Both the position numbers and the translations under genes were made by a program. The notes under the pieces are model-generated. The model saw only the letters and a list, made by a program, of their open reading frames with translations, searched no databases and was not told the DNA's origin. Below, one piece after another: positions 7,677-30,917 of a stretch of 64,000 nt of DNA; within the stretch, counting starts at the first letter, position 1, and each line of letters starts with the position of its first letter. The stretch lies in NCBI RefSeq assembly GCF_056746865.1, contig NZ_CM163382.1; one strand, written 5' to 3'.

Positions 7677-7883
7677 GCGAGCAGCATTCCTGATTTTAAA
7701 CGTGAACGCCGCTGGAAGAATTATCAGGTATAGAATGGCGTTGGGTGCTTGAGGCTGTCTGGCGTTAAGCATTCGCGAGGTTCCAGATGGACAAAAGCCC
7801 CAGGCGATATTTCTATCAACCTGAGGCCAGCGTTCGAACCTAAGCAATTCGAATGTTAGTCTCTTCTTTGCAGGGAGGCAAGA

Positions 7884-8036
7884 CATGCTGACAAAATATG
7901 CCCTTGTGGCAATCATCGTACTGTGTTGTACAGTACTGGGATTCACGCTGATGGTAGGCGACTCGTTGTGTGAGTTGAGTATCAGAGAACGTGGTATGGA
8001 GTTTAAGGCAGTTCTCGCTTACGAATCGAAGAAGTA
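7884..8036 (+). CDS. hokX: Hok/Gef-family small membrane toxin (type I toxin-antitoxin locus)
   Basis: 50 aa ORF ([50 protein letters not shown]) with a hydrophobic N-terminus and conserved Cys, typical of Hok proteins; SD ggagg 6 nt upstream. Absent from the ORF track because it is under 60 aa. Confidence 0.6.
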
Positions 8037-14487: not shown

Positions 14488-15543
14488 ATGACGACATTTA
14501 TTCAGCTTCATTTGTTAACCGCTTACCCTGCTGCCAACCTTAACCGTGATGACACCGGTGCGCCAAAAACTGTGGTACTGGGTGGAGCAACGCGTCTGCG
14601 CGTTTCCTCACAAAGTCTGAAACGTGCGTGGCGCACTTCTGCACTTTTTGAACAGGCACTGGCGGGCCATATTGGTATTCGCAGTGGGCGTATTGCGCGT
14701 GAGGCGGCAACTATCCTGATTGAGAAAGGCATCGAAGAGAAAAAAGCCATCGAATGGGCGGCAAAAATTGCGGATTATCTTGGGAAAGCTAAAAACGACA
14801 AAAAACCAAAAGATCCGCTCACTAACGCCGAAACTGAACAGCTAGTCCATATCAGCCCGGCAGAATTTGACGCCGTAAAAGCGCTGGCCCATCAACTGGC
14901 CGAAGAAAAGCGCGCGCCAAAAGAGGAAGATCTCGCTTTGTTACGTAAAGATCGCATGGCGGTAGATATCGCTATGTTTGGTCGTATGCTGGCGAATAAA
15001 CCCGAATTTAATGTTGAAGCCGCCTGCCAGGTCGCGCATGCATTTGGTGTCAGTGAAACGATTGTCGAAGATGATTTTTTCACCGCCGTTGATGATTTGC
15101 GCCAGGCTTCTGAAGATGCCGGTGCCGGGCATCTTGGTGAAACCGGATTCGGTTCTGCGCTGTTCTACACCTATATCTGCATCGATAAAGATCTGCTGGT
15201 CGAAAACCTCGGCGGTGACGAAGCGTTAGCTAATCAGACCTTGCGCGCCTTTACGGAAGCCGCACTTAAAGTCTCCCCAACCGGCAAACAGAACAGCTTT
15301 GCCAGCCGTGCCTACGCCTCCTGGGCGCTGGCAGAAAAAGGCACTGAACAACCACGCTCTCTGGCGGCGGCTTTCTATGAACCCATTAATGGCACCCGGC
15401 AGTTAGATGTGGCGGTGCAGCGTATTACAACGCTTCGCGAAAATATGAATACGGTCTATGAACAGAAGACCGAATGCGCAAGCTTTGACGTGATGAACAA
15501 ACAGGGAAGCATGAAGGACGTGCTGGACTTTATCTGCGCGTAA
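14488..15543 (+). CDS. cas7: Cascade backbone subunit Cas7 (CasC/Cse4), type I-E
   Basis: 351 aa ORF with N-terminus MTTFIQLHLLTAYPAANLNRDDTGAPKTV...LRVSSQSLKRAWR matching the Cas7e N-terminal consensus. Confidence 0.85.
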   Translation: MTTFIQLHLLTAYPAANLNRDDTGAPKTVVLGGATRLRVSSQSLKRAWRTSALFEQALAGHIGIRSGRIAREAATILIEKGIEEKKAIEWAAKIADYLGKAKNDKKPKDPLTNAETEQLVHISPAEFDAVKALAHQLAEEKRAPKEEDLALLRKDRMAVDIAMFGRMLANKPEFNVEAACQVAHAFGVSETIVEDDFFTAVDDLRQASEDAGAGHLGETGFGSALFYTYICIDKDLLVENLGGDEALANQTLRAFTEAALKVSPTGKQNSFASRAYASWALAEKGTEQPRSLAAAFYEPINGTRQLDVAVQRITTLRENMNTVYEQKTECASFDVMNKQGSMKDVLDFICA

Positions 15544-15553
15544 GGGGCGGCTA

Positions 15554-15628
15554 ATGAGCCAATATTTGATTTTTCAGCTTCATGGGCCAATGGCATCCTG
15601 GGGCGTCGATGCCCCGGCGAAGGGAACA
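15554..15628 (+). pseudogene. cas5: 5' fragment of cas5 (casD); coding similarity ends after about 25 codons
   Basis: Translation MSQYLIFQLHGPMASWGVDAPAKG matches the Cas5e N-terminus (MxxYLIxxLxGPMxxWG), but the remainder (TIQHHTRPVIARILRVLKSILYTFLYTF...) is non-Cas-like and runs into repeats. No cas6e/cas1/cas2 follow. Confidence 0.6.
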
Positions 15629-15685
15629 ATACAACATCACACAAGGCCAGTAATAGCGCGAATCCTGCGAGTTCTAAAATCAATT

Positions 15686-15709
15686 CTATACACATTTCTA
15701 TACACATTT
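15686..15709. repeat. 12-bp tandem direct repeat (tctatacacatt x2) at the element's left end
   Basis: Exact tandem duplication read directly from the sequence. Confidence 0.4.
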
Positions 15710-16113
15710 ATCCCTCGCTTGAGGGTTATGCGTCATCGTTATCGGCTATCTCGCTGGTGGATGATCACGGATGGCCTGATATCTACAGCCGCCTTAAAAA
15801 GCTGTACCCGACAAGCATTACTGCGTATCGGGTTCGTTCGCTCTTTCTACTCGTGGCAGATGAGTTTATCGGTGTGATTTTATCGGGCGAGGGTATTGTA
15901 TCAGGCATCCCCTTTTCTATGCAGATTTGCATAGTTCCGAATGGTGGCGTTATGGAAGCCTCCCATATCAGCATCATGCCCACCAGCGTGAAGTATTTTT
16001 TTATTTCGCGGGTGTAAAAATTTGACGAGGCGGGCGGTCCCATAAGCAATGGATTGTAGGGATTTCGCTCCCCCCCTCCTGAATGCAATTTTTCGTATAT
16101 ATATACAAAACAG

Positions 16114-16269
16114 TGCGGGTTATGCGGGTTACCGGGTTATCTTAGTATGCTAACTATTTTTTGTTCTTTAGTATCAATATGTTGCAAAATACACTGTTCA
16201 TTATTCAAGCATCACATAACCCGCAAAACATCCCAAATAACCCGCAAACGCCCCAAAATAACCCGCAAA
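16114..16269. repeat. Iteron cluster A (crr-like cis replication region)
   Basis: Three direct copies gcgggtta(t/c) at 16114-16140, an AT-rich spacer of about 75 bp, then three inverted copies ataacccgcaaa at 16216, 16237 and 16258 (21-bp spacing). Confidence 0.6.
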
Positions 16270-16876
16270 CACATTGCTGAAAGCAGGGGTTGATAGTTCC
16301 ACTGGTGCCACAGAACGGCTGAATACGGTAACTGTTGCTGGTGGTCTGTCCTGTTGTCGTTCCAGTCTCATCAAATTGAGAGGCAAGACAAAGTGCATTT
16401 TTGCACTATAGCCAAAGCCTCATAAAACAGAGTTACCCCCACAGGCTGGCAAACCATTACCCAACGCAATTAAGTGCGTCAGAATCGATTACAGCGCGTT
16501 CCTGTGGCACGTTGTTGCCGTTCTCAGCAGTGAAAGGAGAGAGTGAAAAGCGCATATCTATTACTGTTGAGGGGTGTAGCGGCATATATCGCGAATATCC
16601 ACGCCCTTAATCCCGATACCGTCACGGCGCATTGAGATCCACCAGAAGATTAAGATAGTTTTTACCTGAAATTATCCAAATAATTGTTTTAACTGATTAA
16701 TTTTTCGAATATCTATTGTTAGGGAATAAATCATCAGATACACCATAAAACGACATCTTTCAGGGTGTAGAAGATGCAAAGCCGGTACTGAAGAAAAGAC
16801 AAAGAATATGAATGGCTGGCCACACGATGGAAGGATTGTCCATTGAAGGATAAATCCCCGTGGTACAAGTTTTGGT

Positions 16877-16900
16877 AAGCCCGCAGCGCGGGCTTTTTTG
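16877..16900 (+). terminator. Intrinsic terminator (aagcccgc-agc-gcgggctt + T6)
   Basis: Perfect GC-rich hairpin followed by tttttt; ends a roughly 250 bp region without a convincing ORF. Confidence 0.5.
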
Positions 16901-16971
16901 TGGACGAAACAAAAGTCAGTGCTACATTCATTGACGCCACATCGAGGTGGCTTATAGATGGAAATTTCACA

Positions 16972-17133
16972 ATGAAAAAAGCATTTGCTGCACTGTTCGT
17001 TTTGTTGTCTCTGGTAGCTTCAACTCAGGCCTTTGCCGGTCGTTGTCAGCACGACAGCGATACTGCCGCTGACGGCTCCCGCTGCGGTGGGCGTTCTGCG
17101 GATTCCCGCCCGGGCGGCGGTGGCATTCGTTAA
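16972..17133 (+). CDS. Small secreted Gly/Arg-rich protein (hypothetical)
   Basis: 53 aa: MKKAFAALFVLLSLVASTQAFA signal peptide followed by a Gly/Arg/Cys-rich tail; the internal start of the 16900..17133 ORF is preferred because of the signal peptide. Confidence 0.35.
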   Translation: MKKAFAALFVLLSLVASTQAFAGRCQHDSDTAADGSRCGGRSADSRPGGGGIR

Positions 17134-17138
17134 AAACA

Positions 17139-17160
17139 AGGCCGCGAAAGCGGCCTGTTT
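17139..17160. terminator. Bidirectional intrinsic terminator between convergent genes
   Basis: Hairpin aggccgc-gaaa-gcggcct with A/T-rich flanks on both sides, between the 16972..17133 (+) and 17163..18014 (-) genes. Confidence 0.5.
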
Positions 17161-17162
17161 GA

Positions 17163-18014
17163 TCACTGTGCAGTTTTCGCTGATCGATTTTCAGCTCTAA
17201 ATTCAAGAACCGTTTCAATATTTCTTTCCTTCAGCATATCAATAACATTTTTATTCATTTGACTATCACTGGTTAATAACTGGTAAACGTTGCTTCTCTC
17301 TTTATCAGAATTTTCTTTAACAGCTGCTTTGCATGCCAAATGCTTATTGAAATTTTCTACATCGCTAGTACAGGAATTTACGGCTGCTGATGAAATATCA
17401 GACGCTGAAGAAACACCATCATCCAAACGTTTTATAGCATTTTCTATACATGAGTTAAGGGAATAAACGACAACTGAGCGATACCCTTCAGACGCACACC
17501 ATTCTAAATTTCTTGAAGGATCGAGTGGTTTTACTTCGCTGGATTGAATTAACTTGTCAAAAACTGACTTATATTCAATCTGTTTTTTATCTATAGCCCA
17601 TACTTCAGTAGCTGATTTATAATTCCCCGTATGCCTATTAACATCAAATCCATGTTTTATAAGCAAATCTGCCCATGAAAGATTTATTGATTCATTGTTA
17701 TGAGGCCATTTTCCTGTCAGAACCGCCCCCATAGACCCCATATATCCGCCATATGATGGTATAGCACCATGGCTCAGTAACTTCTCAGCAACCACAGGGC
17801 AATTAATTACATAAGAGGCGTAAAGCCCATTCCATAAAGCCCCTCTATAGTAATCGCCACGATTAGGTTCTTTTAAGTCGATAGCCTTTGATAATTGTTC
17901 ACACGTTTTGCATGCATCAAAGTTATCCTTATTGCATTGCAATGAACTGGCGGCTGTAGGATTTACAGAGACTATTGAAAGCACTATGCCAAAAAACAAA
18001 TTTATTTTTTTCAT
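17163..18014 (-). CDS. Secreted Cys-rich protein of unknown function (third gene of cargo operon)
   Basis: 283 aa; N-terminal signal peptide MKKINLFFGIVLSIVSVNPTAAS, multiple Cys pairs, possible ankyrin-like helical repeats (weak); start lies 1 nt after the stop of the 1129 aa gene. Confidence 0.7.
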   Translation of the reverse strand: MKKINLFFGIVLSIVSVNPTAASSLQCNKDNFDACKTCEQLSKAIDLKEPNRGDYYRGALWNGLYASYVINCPVVAEKLLSHGAIPSYGGYMGSMGAVLTGKWPHNNESINLSWADLLIKHGFDVNRHTGNYKSATEVWAIDKKQIEYKSVFDKLIQSSEVKPLDPSRNLEWCASEGYRSVVVYSLNSCIENAIKRLDDGVSSASDISSAAVNSCTSDVENFNKHLACKAAVKENSDKERSNVYQLLTSDSQMNKNVIDMLKERNIETVLEFRAENRSAKTAQ

Positions 18015-18015
18015 C

Positions 18016-21000
18016 CTATTTCATCTGCTCTTCAACTTTATTTAGTAATGGTGATATCGCCCACAGATTCTGAAAAGGTAGCATTTTACGGACAGCGTGG
18101 GTTTGCTGGCTGTCAAATTCTCCGTTAAGTACACCATTTGCAACCGTCGCGGCATCACCGCCAAGATCAAAGGTAGGACCAAGTAAAGCACCAATAGCAT
18201 TACGACTCTGAAACCTTGATACCGGAGGCGCACCAAACATCGCGCCAAGACCAAACCTACCGCCGCTTATGTTCTCAACGGTATTCAGCGGCTCAGAGAG
18301 CCAGCCAAGCATTCCGCCCCGGTCGATCCCCTCTTTCACAAGGTTATTCCAGCTGTAGTCGATATCGCGACCGCTTAACTTCTGTTTCATCATATAGACC
18401 ATTGAGCCAAGCGCAATCGTGCCAAGCGCACCAAGATAGAATGAAGCATCGCCCTGCTGGATACCAGATACCAACACCCTGTTATGCTGTGCGAAGATAA
18501 ACGTTTTGAACTGCGTGATCATCTTCCAGCCTTCTTTACTAAAAAACAGCGGTGTATCACCTACGCCAGGCGTTACAATCACTGAGTCTACATCTTTCAG
18601 CACTGCAGACTGGAAAATCTCTCTAGCGAAACGGTCATCCCACAGATGACTATGCCCGGTTAACAGCCCGTCCATATCCTCTCCGTGCTTCCCGAATTGC
18701 TCCCCGATTCGGCGCAGAACATCTTCATTGATGCCGACCTGTGCCATCTTCCGCATTTCACTTTTGGCGAGCGTGCCACCAGCAGAAACCTGGCGAGCCG
18801 CGTCAAGTATCCTCGACTGCACTATCATCCCGGACCATGATTTAAGTGCGCTGTTCCACTGATTCATCAGCGTCCAGTTACCGAATTTCTGCGTCATCCA
18901 GTTCAGGCCTCGCTCAGCGGCGCTTCTCCGGCTATAGGGGTCAGTAAGATCCGCTATAGCCTTTGTACGCGTAGACAGGACATAATCAAGCCCAACGGCC
19001 ATTTCTCGCAAATCCCTGGTTGCAATTTTCACTGAGTCCATATTTTTAAGCATGCTTACCATTGGTCCGAGAGATTTTCTCAGGCCATGCTGCATCATCG
19101 GTCGCATCAGATCAGTTGCAGCGGAGACGGTCATTCCACCAAGCAAACGGAGGAAGTTAATATTCCTAGCAACTCGCCCGGCACGAACAAAGAAACTGCG
19201 TGGATCTTGAGGTGCGCCGTAAGTACCAAGCAGTCGGTCACGCATAGCCGTAATATCCCTAATATCAGCCTCCCGTTGCTTCTCAAGAGCTGCACGTCGT
19301 TTAGGTGTTTTAGCCTCTTTTATTAGCCGGGTATATTCCTCACTAACCTGACGGATTTGCTCCCCCATATCTTTACGGCCAAACTGCGCAGTCAGCTCAA
19401 TTTCTGGTGCCACCTGCCGGAGATAACTTTCCATGATGTAGTTAACATCTGATTCAAGAAAATCTTCTATACGCTCATCAGGAATAAGCAGCGTTCGGCT
19501 TTTAGTGAAACCAGCCCGACCAACGAGTCTCTCTGGGATAATATCGGCTGGTACAAGCCCGGAAGGTGCGCCTATTATTTTATTCACGATCTCGTCAGCA
19601 GCGTCCTCTGCTTCCTCTCGGGATAGAGGCTCCATCTGCTTCAGTGCTCGCTCGCGGCTTGCATTCAGCCTTGTGGTTGAATTTGCCCGTTTTTGCAGTC
19701 GGCGAAGCTCAGAACGATATTTCCGTGGATTATCCAGCAACTCCATATGGCGCTGATAGACAGGAAGCTCACTCTTTGCCTGCGCTATATCATCAAGGCG
19801 TGTTTTAAGGTCAGAGCTTTCTTTCATCATTCTTGCCTGAAGTTTTTCTGATGAAGTCTCGGCCAACTCTTTTTCTATTCTTGTAAGACGCGCCTGTGTG
19901 TCAGTCTCCTGAGATATAAGCTTATTTCGTTTATCCAGTTCTTCCATGAGTAGAATTTTTTTACCAGACCATTTCTCCGCTTCAGCGATTTCACTAGCGA
20001 GAGCATCAGCGCGCGGTGCCGATTCCTCTGCAGTTTTTAGCAATGAATTTATCCTTTCAATTCGCTGACCTGCTTTGTCAGCACCTTTGGCACTAATCCC
20101 TTGTATCCAGTTGGCAATTCGCCCTCTGAATTCAGTGCGGTCGGAAAGTATCTTATCGAACTTATAAATGCGGGGAAGATAACTTTTCGCCGTCACGACA
20201 TCGATATCCTCAGGAAGGATCCCCAGTTCCTGCATACGGGCTTTTGTGGTCTCGAAAATGGGGCGGATTCTGGCGGCTGCTTGTGAAACCTCAGGAATAT
20301 CACTCTGATCACCACGGCGCATAGCCATGCCAACAGCTTCATTGAAATCAATAAAGCTCATCCTCTTCACGCCGCGGGCGCTGACAGATTTGCTGTACTG
20401 CTGGTAAGCATCACGAGTGGCTTCCATCTGCTTATAAAGCATGGCGTCGTATTGCTTAATCTTAGTCTCGACTGCCGTAAACGTAGCCAACCCCTCATCA
20501 TTTTTGGCGAAGAAATAGTTATTTTCGGCAAGCTGCTGGTTAATCTGACGGGAGACAAGAGATGGTGATTGCGCCAAGCGGCCAGCAGGAGTGACACTCA
20601 ACGTTTTGTTAGCAAGTCCAAGTCCAGCGAGCTGTTCCTGATCGAGTGTGGTATTGAAAACCTGAGCTGCACCAATGCTTTGAGGAGAATCCATACCTCG
20701 CAAATGATTACCTACTGAGTTAACCACTGCCTCGCGCGCGCTAGGTCCAGCAAGTAGCTGTGCACCAGCACCAAGGATCCCACCAACGAGAGCATCAACA
20801 ACAACGTTCGATACGCTCTCCATCGGTGAGCGAGCTTCCTGAGTGGCCTGCAATGCGGCCTCTGAAGCAACACTGCCAGCAGCATTGGCTAAAGCAAAAC
20901 GTCCGGCTGTTTCTGCAATACGACCGCCACGAACGACAGCGCCGAACGGAATAAACATAGAAATCGCATTGAATGGATCTGCTAATCTCATTGCTACAGA

Positions 21001-21405
21001 AGAGACTGTACCAGCAAATCCCAAGCCTGAATTGTATTCCATGTCAGCTCTCTGCTGATCGATTCGATGTTTAATTGCCATTGTTTCTTCAGGCGAACCG
21101 GAGTTGATAAACGAATCTGCAAAATCTTCATAGCCTTTAATATCTGCTGCATCGTTATCAAATGGGTTATATCCTTCAATCCTGTCAAACTGACTGAAAG
21201 GAGCACTGGCAATAAAGCTACCCAGCGTGTTATCTATACGAAATGCTGCTTGTCTAGACCTTTGAACGCGTTGATCACTGGTAAATGGGTTCACAGCAGA
21301 AAGCAAAGAAGGTGTTTCCATATAGAAATTACTGTCATCAGGTGCTGCTATTTGCTGAATATCCTCGCCAAGCAACTCTTTAGGATCCTGTTCATATATC
21401 GGCAT
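18016..21405 (-). CDS. Very large protein of unknown function (1129 aa; second gene of cargo operon)
   Basis: Long uninterrupted ORF; small-residue-rich hydrophobic segments (GAGAQLLAG, GALGTIALGSMVYMM, GLGAMFGAPP), long coiled-coil-like Glu/Lys/Arg/Gln-rich stretches, no P-loop or HExxH motif. Start codon overlaps the stop of the upstream 915 aa gene (TAATG). Confidence 0.75.
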   Translation of the reverse strand: MPIYEQDPKELLGEDIQQIAAPDDSNFYMETPSLLSAVNPFTSDQRVQRSRQAAFRIDNTLGSFIASAPFSQFDRIEGYNPFDNDAADIKGYEDFADSFINSGSPEETMAIKHRIDQQRADMEYNSGLGFAGTVSSVAMRLADPFNAISMFIPFGAVVRGGRIAETAGRFALANAAGSVASEAALQATQEARSPMESVSNVVVDALVGGILGAGAQLLAGPSAREAVVNSVGNHLRGMDSPQSIGAAQVFNTTLDQEQLAGLGLANKTLSVTPAGRLAQSPSLVSRQINQQLAENNYFFAKNDEGLATFTAVETKIKQYDAMLYKQMEATRDAYQQYSKSVSARGVKRMSFIDFNEAVGMAMRRGDQSDIPEVSQAAARIRPIFETTKARMQELGILPEDIDVVTAKSYLPRIYKFDKILSDRTEFRGRIANWIQGISAKGADKAGQRIERINSLLKTAEESAPRADALASEIAEAEKWSGKKILLMEELDKRNKLISQETDTQARLTRIEKELAETSSEKLQARMMKESSDLKTRLDDIAQAKSELPVYQRHMELLDNPRKYRSELRRLQKRANSTTRLNASRERALKQMEPLSREEAEDAADEIVNKIIGAPSGLVPADIIPERLVGRAGFTKSRTLLIPDERIEDFLESDVNYIMESYLRQVAPEIELTAQFGRKDMGEQIRQVSEEYTRLIKEAKTPKRRAALEKQREADIRDITAMRDRLLGTYGAPQDPRSFFVRAGRVARNINFLRLLGGMTVSAATDLMRPMMQHGLRKSLGPMVSMLKNMDSVKIATRDLREMAVGLDYVLSTRTKAIADLTDPYSRRSAAERGLNWMTQKFGNWTLMNQWNSALKSWSGMIVQSRILDAARQVSAGGTLAKSEMRKMAQVGINEDVLRRIGEQFGKHGEDMDGLLTGHSHLWDDRFAREIFQSAVLKDVDSVIVTPGVGDTPLFFSKEGWKMITQFKTFIFAQHNRVLVSGIQQGDASFYLGALGTIALGSMVYMMKQKLSGRDIDYSWNNLVKEGIDRGGMLGWLSEPLNTVENISGGRFGLGAMFGAPPVSRFQSRNAIGALLGPTFDLGGDAATVANGVLNGEFDSQQTHAVRKMLPFQNLWAISPLLNKVEEQMK

Positions 21406-24152
21406 TATTTGCCCCCTGCGTATATATTGCTCGGAAGGTAATTGGCTGAACCATAACCGAATGGTTTGGTCAGATCTGGAGGAGTATATCCATCTTTATT
21501 GCTGAACTGCGGCAGCGGATTGCCTTCTCTCCGCACTCTAGCCTCATCAACACGCTGTTGCTGGAACTGAATGGTTTGCCTGTACATTGGAGATGTCAGC
21601 TGATCCGGCTTGAAACGAACAGGGAGACCATTTTCTCCAATATAATTTCTCGGTTCTATCGCTCCGTTTGCGTCAGGCTGTAAAACCATAACAGCATAAC
21701 TCCTATCCCTTGCCGTAAGGCCATCAGAAACAAGTATTAAGTCCGTATCACTGCGAGGACCGCCAAAGGATTTTGATTTAAGCTCGCGTTTTTCCTGCTC
21801 CCACTGCCCCTGTATCCAGTTACCAGCACCATTATTTACTCCGTACAATGCCTCAGGTGCATACTTCATAACCTCTGCTTTGCCATTAACCGTAGAAACT
21901 CCCCAGGTGGTTCTGATCATGGCATTGGTCATTTTCTCAGCCTGTTCTGCATCGCCACCTGTCTGTACAAAGTTAGCATCGTAAATTGTCTGGTAATCTC
22001 GCTGATAGGCCGCATTTGATTTTCCTGGATCGGTAATATCCGGAGACCACGAACCAAAGGAAGTCAGACTGCTGGCGTTATTTTGTGCAGCAGTTACCCT
22101 CGCCGCGACATATTTTTTGTCTCGCATGGCAGTGGAAAGCATCTGTTTCATTCGGTCATCCTGTTGGAACACCTGACTGTAAGCCATATCAACAGCCTTA
22201 TCCTCCGGCACGCCAGCGCGGGAATAATCGTAAACCTTGCCATAAAATGCCATCGTACTTTTATCAAGTGTTGCCGCTGCCGCCGGATTATTATCGAATA
22301 ACTGACCGTAGAATTTTGCCATCGGGACAACCAGCGCAGGATCTCTTGATGTTGCTCCACTGTTAAGCATTGTTTTAACCTGAGTTGGTATCATGCCGCT
22401 TTTAGTTGTGACGGTGACCAGTGTATTGATGCTCTGCGGATCAGATATGGAAAACGAAGGCGCGATATCCTGCGCGAAATAACGGTCTACCGCTGCCTGA
22501 TTGTTTTTGTCGTTCGGGTCCAGCGGGAAGTTATTTTGCATTGAAGACACGAACCTGTTTCTTCCCTGCTGAATCTCCCACTCCCTATCCATCTCTTTAA
22601 ATTTGGCCTGCATTTTCTCCCAGCGTTGCTGGTTAGCAGCAAATCCAGGAGCATTTGGATCCTGTGGACGTAAACGTTCAAGAATGTCTTGTCGTCCTTC
22701 TGGAGTGAGGTCTTTAGCGGCACCAATGACACCTCCATATTGTATCTGCGCCTGCATATCCTTCCACTTCATAGCGCCAATGCGCGGACCATTGGCCCGG
22801 ATAAAATCGTCCTCAGAAGGTAACTTCTCAGGTTTCAATCCTTCATCAAGGGCTGAATATGCATCTTTAACTACGGTGCTAAGCTGGTCCGCATACTGCT
22901 GGCGGTACTGATTTCTCAGCTCATTAGCCTGCCTCAATGCCTGTATTTGCATTTGAGGGCTCATAGCATCAAATGCCGCATTGCCCGTATAACGCTTAGG
23001 TGAATCAAGGTTAGTTAGACCAAGGGCTGCCGAGATACCAGTTTCAAGCTGTTCGGTGCTATAAGGCATACTGCCATTTTCGTGTTTAATAATCCCAGCA
23101 CATAAAGCAGCTAGTGTCTTTGGGTTAGAGATATCAAGCTGATCATTCTCCCCAACACCAAGCTCACCACACAATGCCCTAATATAAGCATCAGTATTAT
23201 TACCATCACTAGCCGGAGCATAGCGATTAACAATCTCGCTAACGGTGTCATAGCCTTGACGCTGGTAAGACAACATATTTTTACCCAACGCGCGGATTCC
23301 ATGCTCAGGGGTAGCAAACGTTGCAAAACGTCCATCGCTACCGATCTGACCTTCCCACGGGTTAGATTTGCTCGCTTCAATATTACCAGGGTTATTATTA
23401 CGTAAACCACGAGCATCCAATGAATTACCATGTGATATTGCACGACTCACACCATCAAGATCCCCTGGCTCTCCATTAACCTGAAGAAACTCGTTGTATT
23501 TTTGAGCGATATTTCCTATCCATGCTTGCTGCCCCATTTGTTCCTTGAGCTGAGTTTTCTGCTGAACACGCCACTCATCAGGAAGCCCATGCGCATCAGC
23601 GTATTGATCAATAGATTCAAATCGCTGCTTGGCTAAATCGACAAATGCTTGGTTATAGCTATATAGCCCCGCAGACTGAGTGACAGCCAATGCATTTCCT
23701 GACAAATACGTTTGATCTTGGAATTGCTGAAACTGCCCAACTTCATATCGACGTGCCTGATTGTAATAAGACTGCATAGACTGCTGGAGTTGAAAGGATA
23801 ATTTATTCCTTTCCTCACTTTCAGGGATTGAGCCTAATAATGCCTGAGCCCTTTCCTGCATATTTTTCATAACAGCGTCACTCTGACCAAGAGCGTTTTT
23901 ACCCTGTTTAGAAATCAGCCCATTTTCAGGGTTGTTAATCTGGTCATCTGCAAATTGGTTAAATTGCAGTAACGCCTCCTGGGCCATAGCAACATTCGCT
24001 TTCTGCCTGGCTTCACCATATGCCACCGCATACTGATCTGCGACATTCGCCAGCACCTGACCTGCTTGAGGAACATCGAAGGTCTGAAAACCACCGGTTT
24101 GCACACCACGACTTTGCACCTGGCGTCCGGATGTAGTAGGAACAACAAGCAT
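21405..24152 (-). CDS. Very large protein of unknown function (915 aa; first large gene of cargo operon)
   Basis: Long ORF preceded by strong SD (AGGAGGT 6 nt upstream); Gln/Ala-rich helical protein with a central block RNNNPGNIEASKSNPWEGQIGSDGRFATFATPEHGIRALGKNMLSYQ that looks like a conserved domain I cannot assign. Confidence 0.75.
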   Translation of the reverse strand: MLVVPTTSGRQVQSRGVQTGGFQTFDVPQAGQVLANVADQYAVAYGEARQKANVAMAQEALLQFNQFADDQINNPENGLISKQGKNALGQSDAVMKNMQERAQALLGSIPESEERNKLSFQLQQSMQSYYNQARRYEVGQFQQFQDQTYLSGNALAVTQSAGLYSYNQAFVDLAKQRFESIDQYADAHGLPDEWRVQQKTQLKEQMGQQAWIGNIAQKYNEFLQVNGEPGDLDGVSRAISHGNSLDARGLRNNNPGNIEASKSNPWEGQIGSDGRFATFATPEHGIRALGKNMLSYQRQGYDTVSEIVNRYAPASDGNNTDAYIRALCGELGVGENDQLDISNPKTLAALCAGIIKHENGSMPYSTEQLETGISAALGLTNLDSPKRYTGNAAFDAMSPQMQIQALRQANELRNQYRQQYADQLSTVVKDAYSALDEGLKPEKLPSEDDFIRANGPRIGAMKWKDMQAQIQYGGVIGAAKDLTPEGRQDILERLRPQDPNAPGFAANQQRWEKMQAKFKEMDREWEIQQGRNRFVSSMQNNFPLDPNDKNNQAAVDRYFAQDIAPSFSISDPQSINTLVTVTTKSGMIPTQVKTMLNSGATSRDPALVVPMAKFYGQLFDNNPAAAATLDKSTMAFYGKVYDYSRAGVPEDKAVDMAYSQVFQQDDRMKQMLSTAMRDKKYVAARVTAAQNNASSLTSFGSWSPDITDPGKSNAAYQRDYQTIYDANFVQTGGDAEQAEKMTNAMIRTTWGVSTVNGKAEVMKYAPEALYGVNNGAGNWIQGQWEQEKRELKSKSFGGPRSDTDLILVSDGLTARDRSYAVMVLQPDANGAIEPRNYIGENGLPVRFKPDQLTSPMYRQTIQFQQQRVDEARVRREGNPLPQFSNKDGYTPPDLTKPFGYGSANYLPSNIYAGGK

Positions 24153-24248
24153 CAGTAACCTCCTATTTTGAATCGGGAGTCAGAATTCATAAAACCTGAG
24201 TTAGATAACATTGGCGTCCCTCTGCTTTGATGCTGTACCAGCGATTCA

Positions 24249-24455
24249 TTACTCACCCCCCGATGCAAAACCATTCTGATTAAGCCAGGCGTTTACGGCA
24301 TGTCTGACAATCTGCGCCACGCCTGGTAATGGCTGATCAGGGTGATTGTTCACATGGTCGATTCTGTACTGCTTAAGGCGCATCACGGTCTGTGCATCCA
24401 GATGAACGGAACCACCTCTGACATCGCCTGTGTTCAGGTCGTTAATACAATTCAC
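24249..24455 (-). CDS. Small protein (68 aa), possible DNA-binding/leader gene upstream of cargo operon
   Basis: ORF with SD (agagga) upstream and the same strand as the operon; not otherwise supported. Confidence 0.4.
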   Translation of the reverse strand: MNCINDLNTGDVRGGSVHLDAQTVMRLKQYRIDHVNNHPDQPLPGVAQIVRHAVNAWLNQNGFASGGE

Positions 24456-24555
24456 AGCAATTTCCTCTTACTGACTAAACTATGCACATTATTGATCTGA
24501 AAAAGTGGTAGATAAACATATTTCTATCACAAAAACAGATTAATTGATTTCAGCC

Positions 24556-24580
24556 AAAAAAAAGCCGGATTGCTCCGGCT
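24556..24580 (-). terminator. Intrinsic terminator on minus strand (agccggagcaatccggct + T8)
   Basis: Hairpin followed by eight T on the minus strand, placed between the IS200/IS605 element and the cargo operon. Confidence 0.45.
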
Positions 24581-24785
24581 CTGTGCTTACTTCTGGTAGT
24601 TACGCCATACTGATTTCCCGATCCCATCTATCCCCATTTCTTTTTCAGTGCGTTTAAGCGACCGTTTCAGGTCTTCTAAATTATCCGGTTGCTTCGGTGG
24701 CCTCTGTGCCTTCCTGGAACATTCCAGTCGTCGCATTGATATTTGACATCCTCCACGCCCTGAAGGACGTGGATTCCTGCTACGT

Positions 24786-25994
24786 TCAGGCTGTCGCCTG
24801 AATCATTTCGGTGGGTTCCTGCTTCAACGGGCGGCCTGACTGCACCATCCCTCCACAGGCAAGAACGGCGTGCCCCGCCGCTAAAATGTTACGAGCGCCG
24901 TTTACATCGGCGTTCGCTGTATATCCACATACCTGGCATCTGAATTGACTTTGTGACAGGCGATTTTCTTTCGCTGTATGACCACAGCACGCGCAACGCT
25001 GGCTTGTGTACGCTGGCGGAACAGCAAGCACCTGACCGCCACACCAGAGCTGCTTGTACTCAAGCTGACGGCGCATTTCATACCAGCCCTGATCCAGTAT
25101 CGAACGGTTTAAACCTGATTTTGCCCGGACATTGCGCCCCGGCTGGCTGACCGTACCCGAGGCTGACTTTGACATGTTGCTGACCTTCAAATCCTCAATG
25201 ACTATCATTGCGTGGTTTTTGCTGATGGTCGTTGTGACTTTGTGAAGGTAGTCCCTGCGGATATTTGCGATACGGGAATGCAGTCGCTGTATTTTGCGTT
25301 TCTGCTTCTGCCAGTTGTTGCTGAATTTAACCTTGCGGCTTAACTGGCGCTGAAGTCTCGCCAGCTTCTTCTGGTTTTTATGAAAACTGTTTACAGGCTC
25401 AAAGACCGTGCCATCTGACAGCGTGGCGAGTTTAGCCACGCCAGCATCCAGCCCGACCATTAATGCTGAAGGGTGAACCGGAGTTGATACTTCACTTTCT
25501 GTCTGAATACTGATGTACCACTTACCGCAGGACTGGCTGACAGTGACATTTTTCACAACACCCGTGACCTGACGGCTGTTCCGGTAGCGCATCCAGCCCA
25601 GTTTCGGCAGAAAAATACGGCTGTTTTCCTGATCGAGCTTAACACCCTGCGGATAGCGGAATGCATCATGCTGTCCCCGCTTTTTGAATCGGGGAAAAGC
25701 GGCACGCTTCTGAAAGAAATTTTTGTAGGCTCGCTCAAGGTCTTTCAGTGACTGCTGCAATGGCTGTGAGGGAGAATCTTTAAGCCATTGCGTTTCAGTA
25801 GCATTTTTCCATTCAACCAGCCAGGAAGTCATCTTTGCATAAGAAATATATTTGTTCCCGGCCTCATGATTCTCATTCTGAAGCGCCAGAGCACGATTGA
25901 AAACGAAACGACATGCGCCCGCGAAGCGCCTCATTTCACGCTCCTGTTTTCCATTTGGTCTTAACTGGAATTTGAAAGCTTGTAGTCGTTTCAT
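24786..25994 (-). CDS. tnpB: TnpB (OrfB) RNA-guided nuclease-like protein of IS200/IS605 family
   Basis: 402 aa with a C-terminal zinc finger (CACCGH...CQVCGY) and RuvC-III-like motif (DVNGARNI). Confidence 0.85.
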
Positions 25995-26016
25995 ATGCCA
26001 AATTATACTTTGGCCT

Positions 26017-26433
26017 ATGAAAAAAGAAACCGATATCCGACGTGGAAGGCACTGTGTCTTCCTGATGCACGTTCACCTGGTCTTTGTTACCAAGTACCGA
26101 CGCCAGATTTTTGACCATGACGCAATAGAAAAACTACGCACTTACTTTTCAAGTGTATGTGCTGATTTTGAAGCTGAACTGGTTGAAATGGATGGAGAAC
26201 GAGATCACGTTCACCTGCTAATTAACTATCCTCCCAAATTGGCGATATCCACCCTGGTGAACAGTCTCAAGGGCGTATCGAGTAGATTATTGCGACGAGA
26301 TCGACCAGATATTGCAGTCAGGTATTACTACAAAGGCGTTTTATGGAGTCCCAGCTATTTTGCCAGTAGCTGCGGAGGTGCGCCAATATCCATCATCCGC
26401 CAATACATTGAACAACAGCAAACACCTAGTTAG
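26017..26433 (+). CDS. tnpA: IS200/IS605 Y1 (HUH) transposase TnpA
   Basis: Internal start MKKETDIRRG of ORF 25897..26433; HUH motif HVHLVF and the catalytic-Tyr region YYYKGVLWSPSYFASSCGG. Confidence 0.85.
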   Translation: MKKETDIRRGRHCVFLMHVHLVFVTKYRRQIFDHDAIEKLRTYFSSVCADFEAELVEMDGERDHVHLLINYPPKLAISTLVNSLKGVSSRLLRRDRPDIAVRYYYKGVLWSPSYFASSCGGAPISIIRQYIEQQQTPS

Positions 26434-26516
26434 GTGGAAAACCGCGCCTTATATCCCCGACCTGAAGGACGGGGCTTTACGGCGCACTGGGTAATTACTC
26501 TGTTCGCTGTTGTGAA

Positions 26517-27002: not shown

Positions 27003-27130
27003 TTTGCGGGTTACAATCGCACATTTGCGGGTTATAACTGCCGTTTTGCGGGTTACGTGCGGGTTATTAATTTCCTTTTTAATCATTCAGTTAATTAACT
27101 TATGCACAGGATAACCCGCATAACCCGCAA
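27003..27130. repeat. Iteron cluster B (candidate replication origin next to primase gene)
   Basis: Four direct copies (t)gcgggtta at 27003-27067, an AT-rich spacer, then two inverted copies ataacccgca at 27111-27129; same 9-mer as cluster A. Confidence 0.6.
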
Positions 27131-27152
27131 CTTTTTACCTCACACAGGGAAG

Positions 27153-29279
27153 TTAATCTTCTGCTTCAGGCTGGAACATCAGCACGTAAAAAATATGTTG
27201 CTTCCCGCCAATCCTGCCGAGCGCCTTTTTCTTGTAACGGCGGTCGCCTCCCGCTTCCAGCATTCCGGCTGCACTCAACGCGCGGGCAAAGTGAGACGGA
27301 TTAAATCCCTGTGCTATCTCACCCTCAAACACATGCGGGAACGTGTAAAAACGGAACTCGTCATCTTCGTTTCTGATACTCCCCTTTCTGTATCCGGCAA
27401 GGTCTTTAATCGGTAAATCACGCTCGTCGCTGTTTGGATAGGGAAGGTATCGACTGAACCCGAACGACGACAAAAACGCCTCAGCCTGTTCAACCATCTG
27501 TTTAAACTCCCTGTTCCCCGTGCCGAACTCCTTCACCCAGGCATTAAAATTATGCTGAATGGCATCGCGGCATTCCTGCTCATCCCAGCCAGTAACATGA
27601 CCGGAAAGTACAAGCGCGGCCTCCAGTATGGCGAATCGTTCCCCCACACGGTGAACCTGTTCGCCGTAGCTCTCCGGTATCAGGTTGCGCCACCGCTCGC
27701 GACATGCCCTTACCGCGTCCTTTGCCTCCTGCTGGTGTTCTGCCAGCCATTTAACCCACTCACGACCTGCCGCCCCGTGATTTTCTGTCCAGGCATCTTT
27801 TAACGCGTCTGCGTGCGCCTTTCCGGTGCTGTATTCGTGAAACTGCGAGGCCTTTTCCATCGGCACGTTAAGCAGACGGACAAGCTGCCCCGCTTTAATT
27901 TTTATCCCTTCCGTTTTGAGGAATGTTTCAACGTCCATTTCTCCGGTGCTGATTGCCACCGTGCGCCAGTGTTTTATCTCCCTGTTGCCGCCGTCCTTCG
28001 CCCCCTGTAATTTCCCCGAACCGTTAAACAGCGTATAGGCTGACGTGGACACCTCCCGCGCGTTTCCGGCCTGGCCTATTTCATCCAGGGGTAACAGCCC
28101 GTCATTATGTGCTTCGGCCTCGTTGGCGATACCTAACGCCGTTCCGTACCAGGTCAGCCGTTGCGCGTCCGGCTCTCCCCATAAACTTGATGCAATGTTC
28201 TGTGTGGTGGTTTTACCTGCTGATGATTGCTCAAAAAGATGAACCCCGAAGCCGTCAGCACCCACCAGCCCGATTAATGGTGCAGATAGCGATACCGCCA
28301 CACCCAGCATCATGGACGGATTACCACCAGCCAGCCGTGCCACGGTATCGCGCCAGCCCTCCGCTGTTCCCGCCACGGAATAGCCATTAACAGCGGCAGT
28401 TTTTCCGGTAAACAGGATGGGTTTCTCTGATTCACCGATGATCGAACCATCCGGCATGATGTACGCACCAAAATGCCACCCCGTTGTTGTGCTTAACTGC
28501 CATTCCTCATGGTTTCCGCTTAACTGCATCCAGTCAGCCAGGATAGCCCTGTATTTGCCGTTGGTCGTCACGTTAAGGCCGTGGTCTTTCAGCAACCGCC
28601 AGCCGTCACGGTCACCAATGCCTCCGCACGGGACCGCCATTGTAATGACCTCATGGTTTGCTGGTTTTTTCCAGCGCATCACGCGGTAATGCTCTTTGCC
28701 GATTGTTCCTGTTCCCAGTAGTTCAAGCGGAGAACATAACCACGTCTCAGGCCGGATAATTTCGCCTGACTGCTTGTCCACTTTGGGCGTTACCCAGAAA
28801 ACACCATCGACGCGACTTTCAACACGAGGCTTTAATTCGTCATCATAATTTCCGGTGAAATTTGTCTTCGCCGGAAGGTTGATCACCAGACTGTTACCGC
28901 GTTCCGCATCATACTTCAGTCCAGCCATGCGCGGAGTCCAGTCCTCCGGCTGCTGATCAACAAAGCTGCGGTAGCAACGCGCCTCCTTCACACCCGCCAC
29001 TGCAAGCAGTGTCGCTATCTGTGTAAGGTGCTGCTCTGATATTTCACCAGCACGATAAATGCGCACGTAATAGCGTCCTTTGTCGATGATTTGCGTGTCT
29101 GCCAGACTCGCCAGTTGTTCCGGTCCAAGAATAACTGGATGTGTATCATCTGCCGCAATATGCTTTCCGGCCCATTCGCTCCACTCTTTCGCATGTGCCC
29201 AGGCATCACTACCCGCAAAGATAATCACCTCCGTCATTTTGTCTTTCGGCTGGTGCTTTAAATTCGGTGCGCGTTTCAT
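27153..29279 (-). CDS. Primase-helicase (TOPRIM-like N-terminus, P-loop NTPase of the DUF927/D5 type), P4 alpha-like replication protein
   Basis: 708 aa; N-terminal TOPRIM-like segment (VIIFAGSDAWAHAK...PVILGPEQ) and Walker A EQSSAGKTT; iterons lie immediately downstream. Confidence 0.75.
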   Translation of the reverse strand: MKRAPNLKHQPKDKMTEVIIFAGSDAWAHAKEWSEWAGKHIAADDTHPVILGPEQLASLADTQIIDKGRYYVRIYRAGEISEQHLTQIATLLAVAGVKEARCYRSFVDQQPEDWTPRMAGLKYDAERGNSLVINLPAKTNFTGNYDDELKPRVESRVDGVFWVTPKVDKQSGEIIRPETWLCSPLELLGTGTIGKEHYRVMRWKKPANHEVITMAVPCGGIGDRDGWRLLKDHGLNVTTNGKYRAILADWMQLSGNHEEWQLSTTTGWHFGAYIMPDGSIIGESEKPILFTGKTAAVNGYSVAGTAEGWRDTVARLAGGNPSMMLGVAVSLSAPLIGLVGADGFGVHLFEQSSAGKTTTQNIASSLWGEPDAQRLTWYGTALGIANEAEAHNDGLLPLDEIGQAGNAREVSTSAYTLFNGSGKLQGAKDGGNREIKHWRTVAISTGEMDVETFLKTEGIKIKAGQLVRLLNVPMEKASQFHEYSTGKAHADALKDAWTENHGAAGREWVKWLAEHQQEAKDAVRACRERWRNLIPESYGEQVHRVGERFAILEAALVLSGHVTGWDEQECRDAIQHNFNAWVKEFGTGNREFKQMVEQAEAFLSSFGFSRYLPYPNSDERDLPIKDLAGYRKGSIRNEDDEFRFYTFPHVFEGEIAQGFNPSHFARALSAAGMLEAGGDRRYKKKALGRIGGKQHIFYVLMFQPEAED

Positions 29280-29578
29280 TTCTTGCCCCTGAATGCGTTA
29301 ATCATGTTCTTTATTACCTGAATATTTGCCCGTGCTTTCTCTTTACTGGTGGGCTTACTGCGTGGTGCTGCACATACCAGTGAAAAATCACGCCGGAACT
29401 GATGAACGGGCATCACACAGTCATAGTCGTACCCTGCGCGGCGGTATGTAATGTGCCGTTCATACACGGAATTAATAACCACGCTGTCGCCATATTTATC
29501 CCGGAAAATATCCCCGATCCTGATTTTCGGATGAGTCTGTCCGCTGGCATTTAAGCCAGTAAATTTAATCTTCTTCAT
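29276..29578 (-). CDS. Hypothetical protein (100 aa), translationally coupled to primase gene
   Basis: ORF whose stop overlaps the primase start; no recognisable motif. Confidence 0.5.
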   Translation of the reverse strand: MKKIKFTGLNASGQTHPKIRIGDIFRDKYGDSVVINSVYERHITYRRAGYDYDCVMPVHQFRRDFSLVCAAPRSKPTSKEKARANIQVIKNMINAFRGKK

Positions 29579-29580
29579 GT

Positions 29581-29838
29581 TTATTTCCCGGTGTGAGGTT
29601 CTTCTTTATATTTATGGGCTAACAAATCTGGTAATTGCCTGTATTTATCCTCGGCAATATATTCAGAATAATCGACAGCACTGTTCAGTATATCTAACGC
29701 CGTTTCATGCTCCAGATTCGAAACTATAAGGAACGTTGCTACTTTTAGCATATTCGCGATATGCAAAAGAGCATCAATTTCATTTTTTGGCGCTTCACTG
29801 AATTTTTGCTCCAGAAGAATAAATCGTTCATCACGCAT
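29581..29838 (-). CDS. Hypothetical protein (85 aa)
   Basis: ORF in the same operon, 2 nt upstream of the next gene. Confidence 0.5.
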   Translation of the reverse strand: MRDERFILLEQKFSEAPKNEIDALLHIANMLKVATFLIVSNLEHETALDILNSAVDYSEYIAEDKYRQLPDLLAHKYKEEPHTGK

Positions 29839-30034
29839 AGTATTCCCCCTGACGGATGCGGGCAGTAAATACCATCACGCAGCCAGCCGGGGATTGCTGG
29901 CGTGCTTCCTGTTCGCTGGTGGCCACGATGGTAATCACACGCGGTTTTGCGGCGCTCAGGGCGATAAAACGCCAGGCGAATTTATTCAGGTTGTGCGAAT
30001 CCCGCCCTTGCGGGTGTATGGTATGATTTCTCAT
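29831..30034 (-). CDS. Hypothetical protein (67 aa), first gene of replication operon
   Basis: C-terminal part of the spurious 415 aa ORF 29831..31078; start ATG at 30034 is preceded by GAGGT and overlaps the next gene by 8 nt. Confidence 0.45.
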   Translation of the reverse strand: MRNHTIHPQGRDSHNLNKFAWRFIALSAAKPRVITIVATSEQEARQQSPAGCVMVFTARIRQGEYYA

Positions 30035-30130
30035 AGCTACCTCGATACTCTCGTTATCGTTGGTGGTTAGAAGCCCTGCGAGTGGTAACGACACTTGCGG
30101 GGCTTTGTTTTTTGTTGCACTTACTGTTAA

Positions 30131-30174
30131 TGTACGTACGTAATATTGATGATAATAGGAGTTACGTACGTACA
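30131..30174. promoter_or_regulatory. Operator: inverted repeat tgtacgtacgtaa-N18-ttacgtacgtaca in divergent promoter region
   Basis: 13-bp arms, each containing the self-complementary octamer GTACGTAC; the right arm overlaps the start codon of the RHH gene. Confidence 0.5.
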
Positions 30175-30365
30175 TGTCAACATTAAAGCGGGATAAATCA
30201 CCACGCGGCGAGGGATGGTCGCCGACATTCCAGATACGAATTAGCAAAGAACTACGCCAGCAAGTAAACGAGGCAGCAACCGCCGATGGCCTAACCCTCG
30301 GCAATTGGTTTAAAGAATTAGCTCGTGCCGAACTAAAGCGACGCGGCATTGAACCTAAAGGCTGA
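30174..30365 (+). CDS. Ribbon-helix-helix (Arc/Mnt/CopG-like) DNA-binding protein, candidate repressor
   Basis: 63 aa; FQIRISKELRQQVNEAATADGLTLGNWFKELARAEL fits the beta-strand/helix/helix RHH pattern; it sits on the palindromic operator. Confidence 0.55.
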   Translation: MSTLKRDKSPRGEGWSPTFQIRISKELRQQVNEAATADGLTLGNWFKELARAELKRRGIEPKG

Positions 30366-30551
30366 TGTATGACTGAAAAGCAGACCGATAACAAACTTTC
30401 TCTACCAGAGAATAAACCAGCAGGCTTCTTACCAAGAAAAATCCTTGATGAGATCAAACGCCGCCAGCGGCGCAAGGCCAAAGAGCAGGAGTAACCATCA
30501 CCAGCGCCGTGGTGCGGTGAACTGTGGCGCACAGGGTTACAGGTATCTACG

Positions 30552-30749
30552 ATGACTGACAAATCATTAAAGAAATTATCCTCATCCAGGAAAAAACAAC
30601 GCAAAAATGCGGTAAGCGAACAAGAACAGGAAAGATTTGCGCCATGTGCGTTTGTCCTTGAGAAGTTCTTAAAAGAGTACAGGCGCACAAAAATGGAATC
30701 GCATACCTGGAAAACATCGCAGTATGGCGATGCTAAAGAGCAGGAATAG
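30552..30749 (+). CDS. Hypothetical basic protein (65 aa)
   Basis: ORF only; weak support. Confidence 0.3.
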   Translation: MTDKSLKKLSSSRKKQRKNAVSEQEQERFAPCAFVLEKFLKEYRRTKMESHTWKTSQYGDAKEQE

Positions 30750-30917
30750 CCCACCAGCAAGCCAGCACACTGATCACATTGCCCACCAGCCGCAAATCTG
30801 GCATTGTTGGCGATGCGTTTGATTTCCTTTGTTCCCACTGGCGACCTATCCCGGTCGCCTTTGTTTTGCCTGTTATCCAGCAACGGGGCGCTTTTTCTTT
30901 CTGTAACGTTCGGATCG

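Follow-up and report, generated by a model that had tools for sequence, protein, structure and literature searches.

The interval 16620-17133 of the DNA analyzed here (the window hereafter being the whole 64,000-nt stretch, from contig NZ_CM163382.1 of NCBI RefSeq assembly GCF_056746865.1) very probably consists of a recombination scar and, behind it, an intact phage moron. A sequence-only reading had placed a candidate small RNA and a small secreted peptide in this interval. We found that the proposed small RNA is most likely what is left of a broken phage gene, namely its last 25 codons and its terminator, and that the peptide is a known, widespread phage moron. Overall, the interval is ordinary and already annotated, and the residual interest, which is mild, lies with the orphan conserved mini-domain of the peptide alone.

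The window is a piece of E. coli chromosome. Its + strand carries a truncated casD, preceded by cysJIH, a hok/sok locus, and cas3-casA-casB-casC; the casD junction may reflect an inversion at a 7-bp overlap, GGCGAAG. An island of ~19.5 kb extends from ~15616 to the tRNA-Gly(ccc) gene glyU at 35098-35171. The 11-mer GGCGAAGGGAA occurs twice in the window, at 15616 and, within glyU, at 35105, and it therefore bounds the island. Judged by its gene and site content (Table 1), the island resembles PICI-type satellites and has a cos like that of phiP27. The element had previously been called P4-type, a designation that held only in part. An integrase, AlpA, and a DUF927 primase are present, but the cos matches phiP27 rather than P2, the general look is that of a PICI, and no Rfam immunity-RNA family was matched. 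No sid/psu/delta-type open reading frame (ORF) was evident in the island, and no capsid-size or Psu-type family matched any of ~20 ORFs scanned with general profiles. Repeats analogous to those of the iteron region were also seen in the E. coli 042 island and, beside the primase gene, in contig OR845527.

Table 1. Features of the glyU island and of the interval 16620-17133 (window coordinates; a dot marks features given without a strand)
Feature	Position	Strand	Remarks
att core repeat	15616-15626	.	Island end; copy at 35105 inside glyU
phiP27-like cos	15997-16079	.	~45 nt near-identical to the cos annotated in phiP27
Iteron / AT-rich origin-like region	16114-16269	.	Repeat analysis
Non-coding island backbone	16620-16800	.	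AT-rich core ~16640-16760 (23% GC); no family-matching ORF
DUF4760 gene 3' stump	16801-16878	+	25 codons, KEYEWLATRWKDCPLKDKSPWYKFW, plus TAA; tblastn
Intrinsic (Rho-independent) terminator	16877-16899	+	8-bp stem, AGC loop, T6; overlaps the stump stop codon
Candidate promoter	16901-16928	+	-35 TGGACG 16901-16906, 16-nt spacer, -10 TACATT 16923-16928; predicted from sequence
Leader hairpin GCCAC-N6-GTGGC	16936-16951	+	-8.4 kcal/mol; 5 bp, kept across genera
Pre-peptide gene	16972-17133	+	Predicted signal peptide 16972-17037 (MKKAFAALFVLLSLVASTQAFA); predicted mature part of 31 aa 17038-17130; stop 17131-17133
Bidirectional terminator	17134-17160	.	A-run and T-run border the stem (17139-17156)
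Uetakevirus-type internal-virion (ejection) protein cassette	17163-24152	-	Three large genes, 283, 1129, and 915 aa; phrog_6118, phrog_342, phrog_1044
DUF927 primase	27153-29279		SSB also encoded in the island
AlpA gene	32368-32565		Island; int-alpA RNA motif also present
Tyrosine integrase	33719-34972		Island
AntA and antirepressor-like genes			Island
Icd-like domain protein and DUF4222			Island
IS200/IS605 insertion			Island

Positions 16878-23165 are 98.2% identical to a Uetakevirus-type prophage of MINF_2E, and the 17163-24152 cassette is syntenic with epsilon15 gp15-gp18. The island backbone at 27100-35000 had no match in Uetakevirus genomes; because this backbone, from int to primase, lacks such a match, we rejected the possibility that the island as a whole derives from a Uetakevirus prophage by deletion. 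The flanks 15616-17158 and 24079-24742 recur in sister islands, whose ejection-protein cassette is a different one, and the related island of E. coli 042 has no ejection-protein cassette. The prophage identity, the unmatched backbone, and the different cassettes of the sister islands therefore identify 16620-17133 as the left junction of imported prophage DNA in a satellite-like island. The same block also occurs in FDAARGOS_1298 and strain 20. The minus-strand genes had been described as a cargo operon on which the peptide gene converges; a convergent operon is indeed present, and PHROG matches define its content as podovirus internal-virion (ejection) protein genes.

To the left of the hairpin, the junction carries the end of a dead gene. 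A tblastn search of 15 neighboring phage and island proteins against 15600-17200 showed that the stump is 100% identical to residues 155-179 of WP_077880104.1 from the BE311 prophage (E 5e-15), a protein of 179 aa whose full length matches PF15956 (DUF4760) with E 5e-30. Only these last 25 residues of the DUF4760 ORF remain in the window: the stump ends with a TAA stop at 16876-16878, the same frame is full of stops upstream of 16801, and DNA homology to the BE311 prophage begins at ~16800. Apart from the stump, the same search recovered a single remnant, a 16-residue relic of a hypothetical protein of strain C5 on the minus strand (16585-16632).

The hairpin that follows begins inside the TAA stop of the stump. 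Its stem, AAGCCCGC/GCGGGCTT with an AGC loop at 16877-16895, has 8 pairs (6 of them G-C) and is adjoined directly by a T6 run that reaches 16899, so that the 3' end of the transcription unit bears the G+C-rich stem-loop and U-run of an intrinsic terminator. The folding energy is -13.4 kcal/mol (z -2.3 vs shuffles), in agreement with the earlier description of a strong hairpin plus T6 closing an ORF-poor stretch. Terminator-like sites are not unusually numerous in 15500-18200 (4 found vs 2.7 +/- 1.8 expected), but this hairpin and the one at 17139-17156 are individually strong. In five phages or prophages, a hairpin lies directly 3' of the stop codon of an accessory gene, and the gene differs. 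In MINF_2E and the phage TL-2011b it encodes YafO, in H10407 a hypothetical protein of 125 aa, in BE311 DUF4760, and in BUCT711, a Uetakevirus of Klebsiella, DUF2335. The hairpin sequence is common to the four E. coli copies, and that of BUCT711 has diverged and is weak (-5.9 kcal/mol). Since the same hairpin follows the stops of different genes, it is the terminator of a variable accessory-gene slot. Consistent with this boundary, the block that is at least 97% conserved in E. coli starts exactly at the hairpin, and 16875-17158 is carried by ~500 of 5426 complete E. coli genomes.

Upstream of the stump, the absence of a convincing ORF before the hairpin was confirmed by a scan of both strands over 16200-16970. 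No + strand ORF of at least 25 aa ends at the hairpin, and none of six ORFs of 42-78 aa across 16200-16970 had a PHROG match; two minus-strand ORFs, of 78 and 50 aa, span the hairpin, and both lack a PHROG family. The main alternative, which we regard as very improbable, is that this stretch encodes a genuine regulatory small RNA (sRNA) of ~240 nt, transcribed from a promoter in the AT-rich part near 16632-16659, ending at 16877-16899 with reuse of the stump and terminator in the style of 3'-end-derived sRNAs, and perhaps working with ProQ/FinO. Its terminator is strong, and the + strand has one sigma-70-like site (TTGAGA-16-GATAGT, 16632-16659) that could drive a transcript into the stump; however, chance alone would give more promoter-like sites than there are (6.0 expected, 3 found). 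Sister islands encode a protein of the ProQ/FinO family that might conceivably be linked to such an RNA, but its gene is absent from the window, where an IS200/IS605 element takes its place.

We also found no constraint at the RNA level. Searching the whole window with Rfam 15 at the gathering threshold returned sok, tRNA, and int-alpA alone, with no sRNA or immunity-RNA family in the interval. When matches with E up to 10 were allowed over 15600-17200, the best ones scored less than half the gathering score of their family, with the exception of a chance match to a CRISPR repeat (24.4 vs 38 bits). The putative 246-nt RNA (16660-16905) folds no better than its shuffles (z -0.76). Of 5426 E. 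coli genomes, only 44 hold segment 16270-16800 in full, with identities of 97.6-99.6%, and 16620-16800 is not alignable with the 042 sister island; beyond these ~44 near-identical islands, the sequence is not conserved. Among five sister islands, 16620-16800 varies at 2.8 columns per 100 nt, similar to neighboring DNA, and the most variable segments are precisely the stump (13 variable columns per 100 nt) and the hairpin (29), which would form the 3' end of the RNA. Moreover, the hairpin is degraded in a deleted variant found in at least 12 sister islands, as illustrated by islands E1 and ExPEC XM (-5.3 and -3.9 kcal/mol, z ~0). The stretch therefore shows neither the fold stability nor the conservation with covariation of a structured or conserved sRNA, only near-identical copies being in existence. 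The candidate small RNA is thus not supported, the last 78 nt before the hairpin being a gene stump and the hairpin being one that follows varied accessory genes. As a small-RNA lead, the stretch does not matter; it does illustrate how a gene that was truncated but kept its terminator may pass for an sRNA gene, and such candidates need checking against the 3' ends of known genes.

Outside 16620-17133, the alignment of 16270-16800 to the E. coli 042 island is limited to a 62-nt patch, 16448-16509. Folding of the conserved patch 16436-16524 gave z values of +0.35 and -1.05 on the two strands.

The right part of the interval is occupied by the peptide gene, a + strand ORF of 53 aa with its ATG at 16972 and its stop at 17131-17133, convergent with the minus-strand gene 17163-18014. 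The candidate promoter that lies just downstream of the T6 run falls below the threshold of our promoter scan; its -10 element recurs as TACAAT, TATAAA, or TACGCT in the Klebsiella, Cronobacter, Salmonella, and Pectobacterium copies. In the leader hairpin, 84% of cells are paired across five genera, vs 28-52% when the partner is slid, and two of the five pairs have changed on both sides, as was likewise seen in 37 of 500 shuffles; because there are five sequences, this covariation is only suggestive. The terminator at 17139-17156 belongs both to the peptide gene and to the virion-protein operon converging on it (+ strand -17.5 kcal/mol, - strand -16.8, z about -4.3), and its counterpart is annotated as a terminator in phiV10 and, at the same position, in epsilon15. 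The sequence-only reading of a small gene, with a probable signal peptide, that converges on the neighboring operon is therefore well founded: the gene matches phrog_14503, its conservation is codon-periodic, a signal-peptide layout can be read by eye, and it shares a bidirectional terminator with 17163-18014. The description of the peptide as Cys-rich was overstated, as it has two Cys only, and Gly/Arg/Asp/Ser-rich fits better.

The peptide is WP_000708858.1, identical to TL-2011b gp43 and listed in RefSeq as "hypothetical" or "transmembrane anchored protein"; this accession is annotated at the same position, with the same sequence as in the window, in six E. coli genomes. The match to phrog_14503 covers residues 1-53 of 53 (E 2.3e-40). 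Homologues form 57 clusters from Enterobacterales, comprising Escherichia, Shigella, Klebsiella, Citrobacter, Cronobacter, Franconibacter, Salmonella, Pectobacterium, and Dickeya, and ~9% of complete E. coli genomes carry the peptide. Searches of Pfam, NCBIfam, and PDB sequences with the peptide gave no match. DNA conservation across five genera shows codon periodicity, and in the 20 codons DTAADGSRCGGRSADSRPGG a manual count between the window and a Klebsiella phage gave ~9 synonymous and 0 non-synonymous changes, a pattern that indicates strong purifying selection on the peptide.

The distribution of the gene across phages indicates that the peptide gene is a moron, probably a self-contained one, of epsilon15-like (Uetakevirus) prophages. 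Its slot lies between the ejection-protein operon and the tailspike region, where epsilon15 has the terminator only and where E. coli, Klebsiella, and Cronobacter relatives have the peptide, whether or not further accessory genes accompany it. Outside Uetakeviruses, the gene sits between MuF-like and tail genes in a different type of phage in Pectobacterium, and it adjoins a MobA relaxase in Salmonella. Within the island, the module is dispensable, because 16600-17165 is intact in only 7 genomes vs 44 with the island backbone, and because a 195-bp deletion in sister islands takes out the candidate promoter and most of the peptide ORF.

Two further readings of the peptide gene were weighed, and we consider both highly improbable. 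In the first, the locus would be a type I toxin-antitoxin system in which an RNA from nearby would control the peptide, a small membrane toxin like Hok. Hok/Gef toxins are small proteins that combine a hydrophobic N-terminus with a Cys-containing polar tail, and the peptide, which has a non-coding stretch upstream, resembles them in size, in its hydrophobic N-terminus, and in its polar Cys tail. However, its hydrophobic segment varies freely and has a canonical A-x-A end and its polar tail is invariant, the opposite of what is expected of a membrane toxin. There is no convincing antisense complementarity, the inverted repeats that touch the leader being only A/T-run matches of 76-79%. Hok/Sok-type systems are defined by a conserved hydrophobic core and an antisense RNA to the leader, and neither was seen here. 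In addition, sister islands have lost the peptide gene without compensating change, and the Rfam sok match is at 7743-7900 rather than at the peptide locus.

In the second reading, the true product would be longer, either a 77-aa ORF from a GTG at 16900 or a minus-strand 78-aa ORF at 16734-16970; some gene callers do give N-terminally extended versions of 66-85 aa, and phrog_3117 is a 77-residue profile, but the 77-aa extension would begin within the terminator T-run and is ruled out because single-base indels break its frame upstream of the ATG relative to the Klebsiella phage, the upstream DNA being unalignable in other genera and conservation beginning at the ATG, and the minus-strand ORFs have no family match and cross both the terminator and the candidate promoter.

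Returning to the 53-aa moron peptide, we examined its sequence for likely processing. Read by eye, it has the layout of a signal peptide, with MKK followed by AFAALFVLLSLVA and then by STQAFA before G, and in homologues A/V/S-x-A is retained ahead of G-N/P/R-C. Sec probably exports the peptide, with cleavage after AFA, which would release a 31-residue product with two invariant Cys 12 residues apart. The mature core from Cys25, CQHDSDTAADGSRCGGRSADSRPGG, is invariant or nearly so across genera and the signal peptide drifts. In an AlphaFold model of the full pre-peptide, the N-terminal signal helix alone was confident.

In a profile search, 1.84 billion representative proteins yielded 379 clusters with a motif of ~29 residues at E up to 0.001. 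From these, 223 retrieved sequences gave 157 distinct segments that fit x-G-N-C-x5-D-x-A-x-DGSRCG-x-R-S/A-A-x-x-RPGG, the mini-domain consensus within them being G-N-C-x5-D-x-A-x-D-G-S-R-C-G-x-R-S/A-A-x-x-R-P-G-G. The motif belongs to stand-alone peptides of up to 80 aa in 66 of the 157 segments, occupies the extreme C-terminus of larger proteins in 42, follows directly after a signal peptide in 32, and is internal in the remaining 17, which include a four-Cys variant, CPCPYN..NGSRCGGRSAYSRPGG. In some larger homologues it comes after a membrane segment at the C-terminus, which makes its cellular side ambiguous. A lambdoid prophage has one of the larger proteins in its Q-holin moron slot, so that the mini-domain is found in two moron slots, this one and the Uetakevirus slot next to the ejection-protein genes. 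Of ten larger proteins that were scanned, nine had no Pfam family over the motif. The remaining one, P0170, has chitin-binding (CBM_14) repeats of eukaryote type and is probably a spurious match. A PDB profile search with the motif alignment gave no match, an AlphaFold model of the motif based on 52 sequences reached a mean pLDDT of 78 with no regular secondary structure, and Foldseek of this model against the PDB gave no meaningful match. Our literature searches found no relevant paper on the motif, on the phage "transmembrane anchored protein", or on satellites carrying ejection proteins.

Because the peptide combines a predicted signal peptide with a moron context, our best guess is that it could act in the envelope as a lysogenic-conversion or superinfection-exclusion factor. 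A role in phage-host envelope interactions would be new, if true. A broader and more speculative view, which we consider unlikely, is that the mature peptide is a stand-alone mini-domain and a recurrent moron of several types of temperate phage that could serve as an envelope effector, and whose constant position may anchor the swapping of ejection cassettes. Such swapping, with the moron position as a homology anchor, may occur between prophages and PICI-like satellites.

These observations can be assembled into a model that we regard as very probable. An epsilon15-like (Uetakevirus) prophage would have supplied a block of ~7.4 kb to a PICI-like island at glyU, which has int, AlpA, antirepressor-like genes, a DUF927 primase, and SSB, together with a phiP27-like cos and an iteron-type origin. 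On its left, the block would begin at ~16800, within the DUF4760 accessory gene, of which the last 25 codons and the Rho-independent terminator appear to have survived. In intact phages, this terminator would end a rightward accessory-gene transcript whatever gene is in the slot (YafO, DUF2335, DUF4760, or other). The moron downstream would then be expressed as a unit of its own, from a weak promoter with its predicted -10 at 16923-16928, through a leader with a small hairpin and the 53-codon ORF, to the bidirectional terminator.

As a small-RNA candidate, the 16620-16900 stretch resembles the P4 CI RNA and the P1/P7 C4 immunity RNAs in being a non-coding stretch with a terminator in an element with P4-type int/AlpA, and in nothing else. 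Unlike these RNAs, it has no Rfam sequence or structure match, its 3' part is decayed coding sequence, and it lies ~13-17 kb from the regulatory region of the island (29831-33674). Small RNAs derived from 3'-UTRs or 3' ends do exist, CpxQ and SroC being examples, and the candidate, if real, would similarly use the terminator of a protein-coding gene. Unlike CpxQ and SroC, however, its parent gene is dead, it has no conserved seed or structure, and its terminator decays in sister copies.

For the surrounding island, Gram-negative PICIs such as EcCICFT073 provide a comparison (PMC6739421). The island is like EcCICFT073-type PICIs in having int, AlpA, a primase, a cos of helper-phage type, and accessory genes near the ori/cos end (PMC6739421). 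It is unlike them in that its cos resembles that of phiP27 rather than that of lambda or phage 80, and in that its accessory cargo is a podovirus ejection-protein cassette.

The closest counterpart of the peptide module is that of TL-2011b, whose gp43 (YP_007001994.1, "putative transmembrane anchored protein") is the same protein, encoded in a DNA module 98-99% identical to that of the window. The neighbors also match, with an accessory gene and terminator upstream and a convergent operon with the shared terminator downstream. In contrast to TL-2011b, the element that houses the window copy is a satellite-like island and not a complete prophage, and the accessory gene upstream of it is reduced to the 25-codon stump.

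Phage morons, as known from lambdoid phages and HK97, are autonomous units of promoter, gene, and terminator inserted between conserved phage genes. A promoter of its own is probable for the peptide unit, with 16901-16928 as the candidate. Like morons, the unit has terminators on both sides, recurs in unrelated phage and plasmid contexts, and is absent or present between the same two conserved genes in related phages (missing in epsilon15, present in TL-2011b, BUCT711, and prophages of Cronobacter and E. coli).

At one end of the island, about 45 nt are nearly identical to the cos region annotated in the Stx2e phage phiP27, and this stretch also resembles the genome ends of Burkholderia phage. 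The related island of E. coli 042 keeps it at about 87%. The presence of a phiP27-like cos implies that the island would be packaged by a phiP27-type cos helper. RefSeq 'hypothetical protein' calls span the island end in the window and in three comparison loci, but we consider them probably spurious: these ORFs start in different flanking DNA at every integration site, traverse the att arm repeats and enter the cos region, and a search for a family match to them returned none.

Beside the cos stretch lies an origin-like architecture, which was compared across two further loci. Three copies of a first repeat, GCGGGTTAT, precede the AT-rich spacer, and three copies of a second, ATAACCCGCAAA, follow it at 21-bp spacing (four copies of this type in strain 20 versus three in the window). 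The 042 island has the same repeat layout with different repeat sequences, and contig OR845527 carries GGGTTAY repeats immediately 3' of its primase gene. All these repeats have the look of primase-specific iterons.

At this end of the island, casD (cas5e) is broken off at 15622, and the casD/island junction overlaps the glyU att core exactly over GGCGAAG. When set against K-12 and FDAARGOS_1298, in the latter of which this island end adjoins yqeG, cysJIH and cas3-casC lie in the opposite orientation with respect to xdhA. Together, the exact overlap and the inverted gene order suggest an integrase-type inversion of ~100 kb that would have broken the type I-E cas operon. ETEC1747 (L013) has the same casD junction, where it adjoins another island from this family.

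Features of the island and its junction. Bare coordinates are those of the window; L-numbers are comparison loci in their own coordinates.
Feature	Position	Remarks
casD junction	15554-15626	L013 9305-9420
'Hypothetical protein' calls	15616-16017	L001 11995-12402; L005 6971-7399; L006 1942-2697
phiP27-like cos stretch	15997-16079	
cosN equivalent	about 16027-16036	within the cos stretch; likeness to phiP27 cos
Origin-like architecture	16086-16270	two repeat arrays either side of AT-rich spacer; compared with L009 3700-3900, L015 1640-1940
First repeat array	16114-16140	
Conserved patch	16439-16512	
Relic MRRDGIGIKGVDIRDI	16585-16632	minus strand
Ejection-protein cassette	17163-24742	L001 13546-21798
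Truncated PerC-like ORF	24587-24736	remains beside IS200/IS605-type element
IS200/IS605-type element	within 24743-26490	
TnpB	24786-25994	
Y1 transposase ORF	25897-26433	

Within the backbone, a patch of 62-70 nt, bracketed by CCACAGG...CCTGTGG, is about 84% conserved between the window island and the 042-type island, and the DNA around it is unalignable between the two. No significant folding of the patch was found on either strand. A 16-residue relic, MRRDGIGIKGVDIRDI, derives from a hypothetical gene of roughly 100 aa, of which strain C5 has an intact copy at its yejO locus; the relic is another sign that the backbone is a patchwork of decayed genes. Further along, the IS200/IS605-type element replaces a ProQ/FinO-family gene and its neighbour, both present in sister islands.

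Our literature search found no description of ejection proteins encoded by satellites. We found podovirus ejection-protein cassettes, like gp15-gp18 of epsilon15, in these satellite-like islands. Sister islands have common flanks and different cassettes, a pattern that suggests cassette exchange between the islands and resident Uetakevirus prophages.
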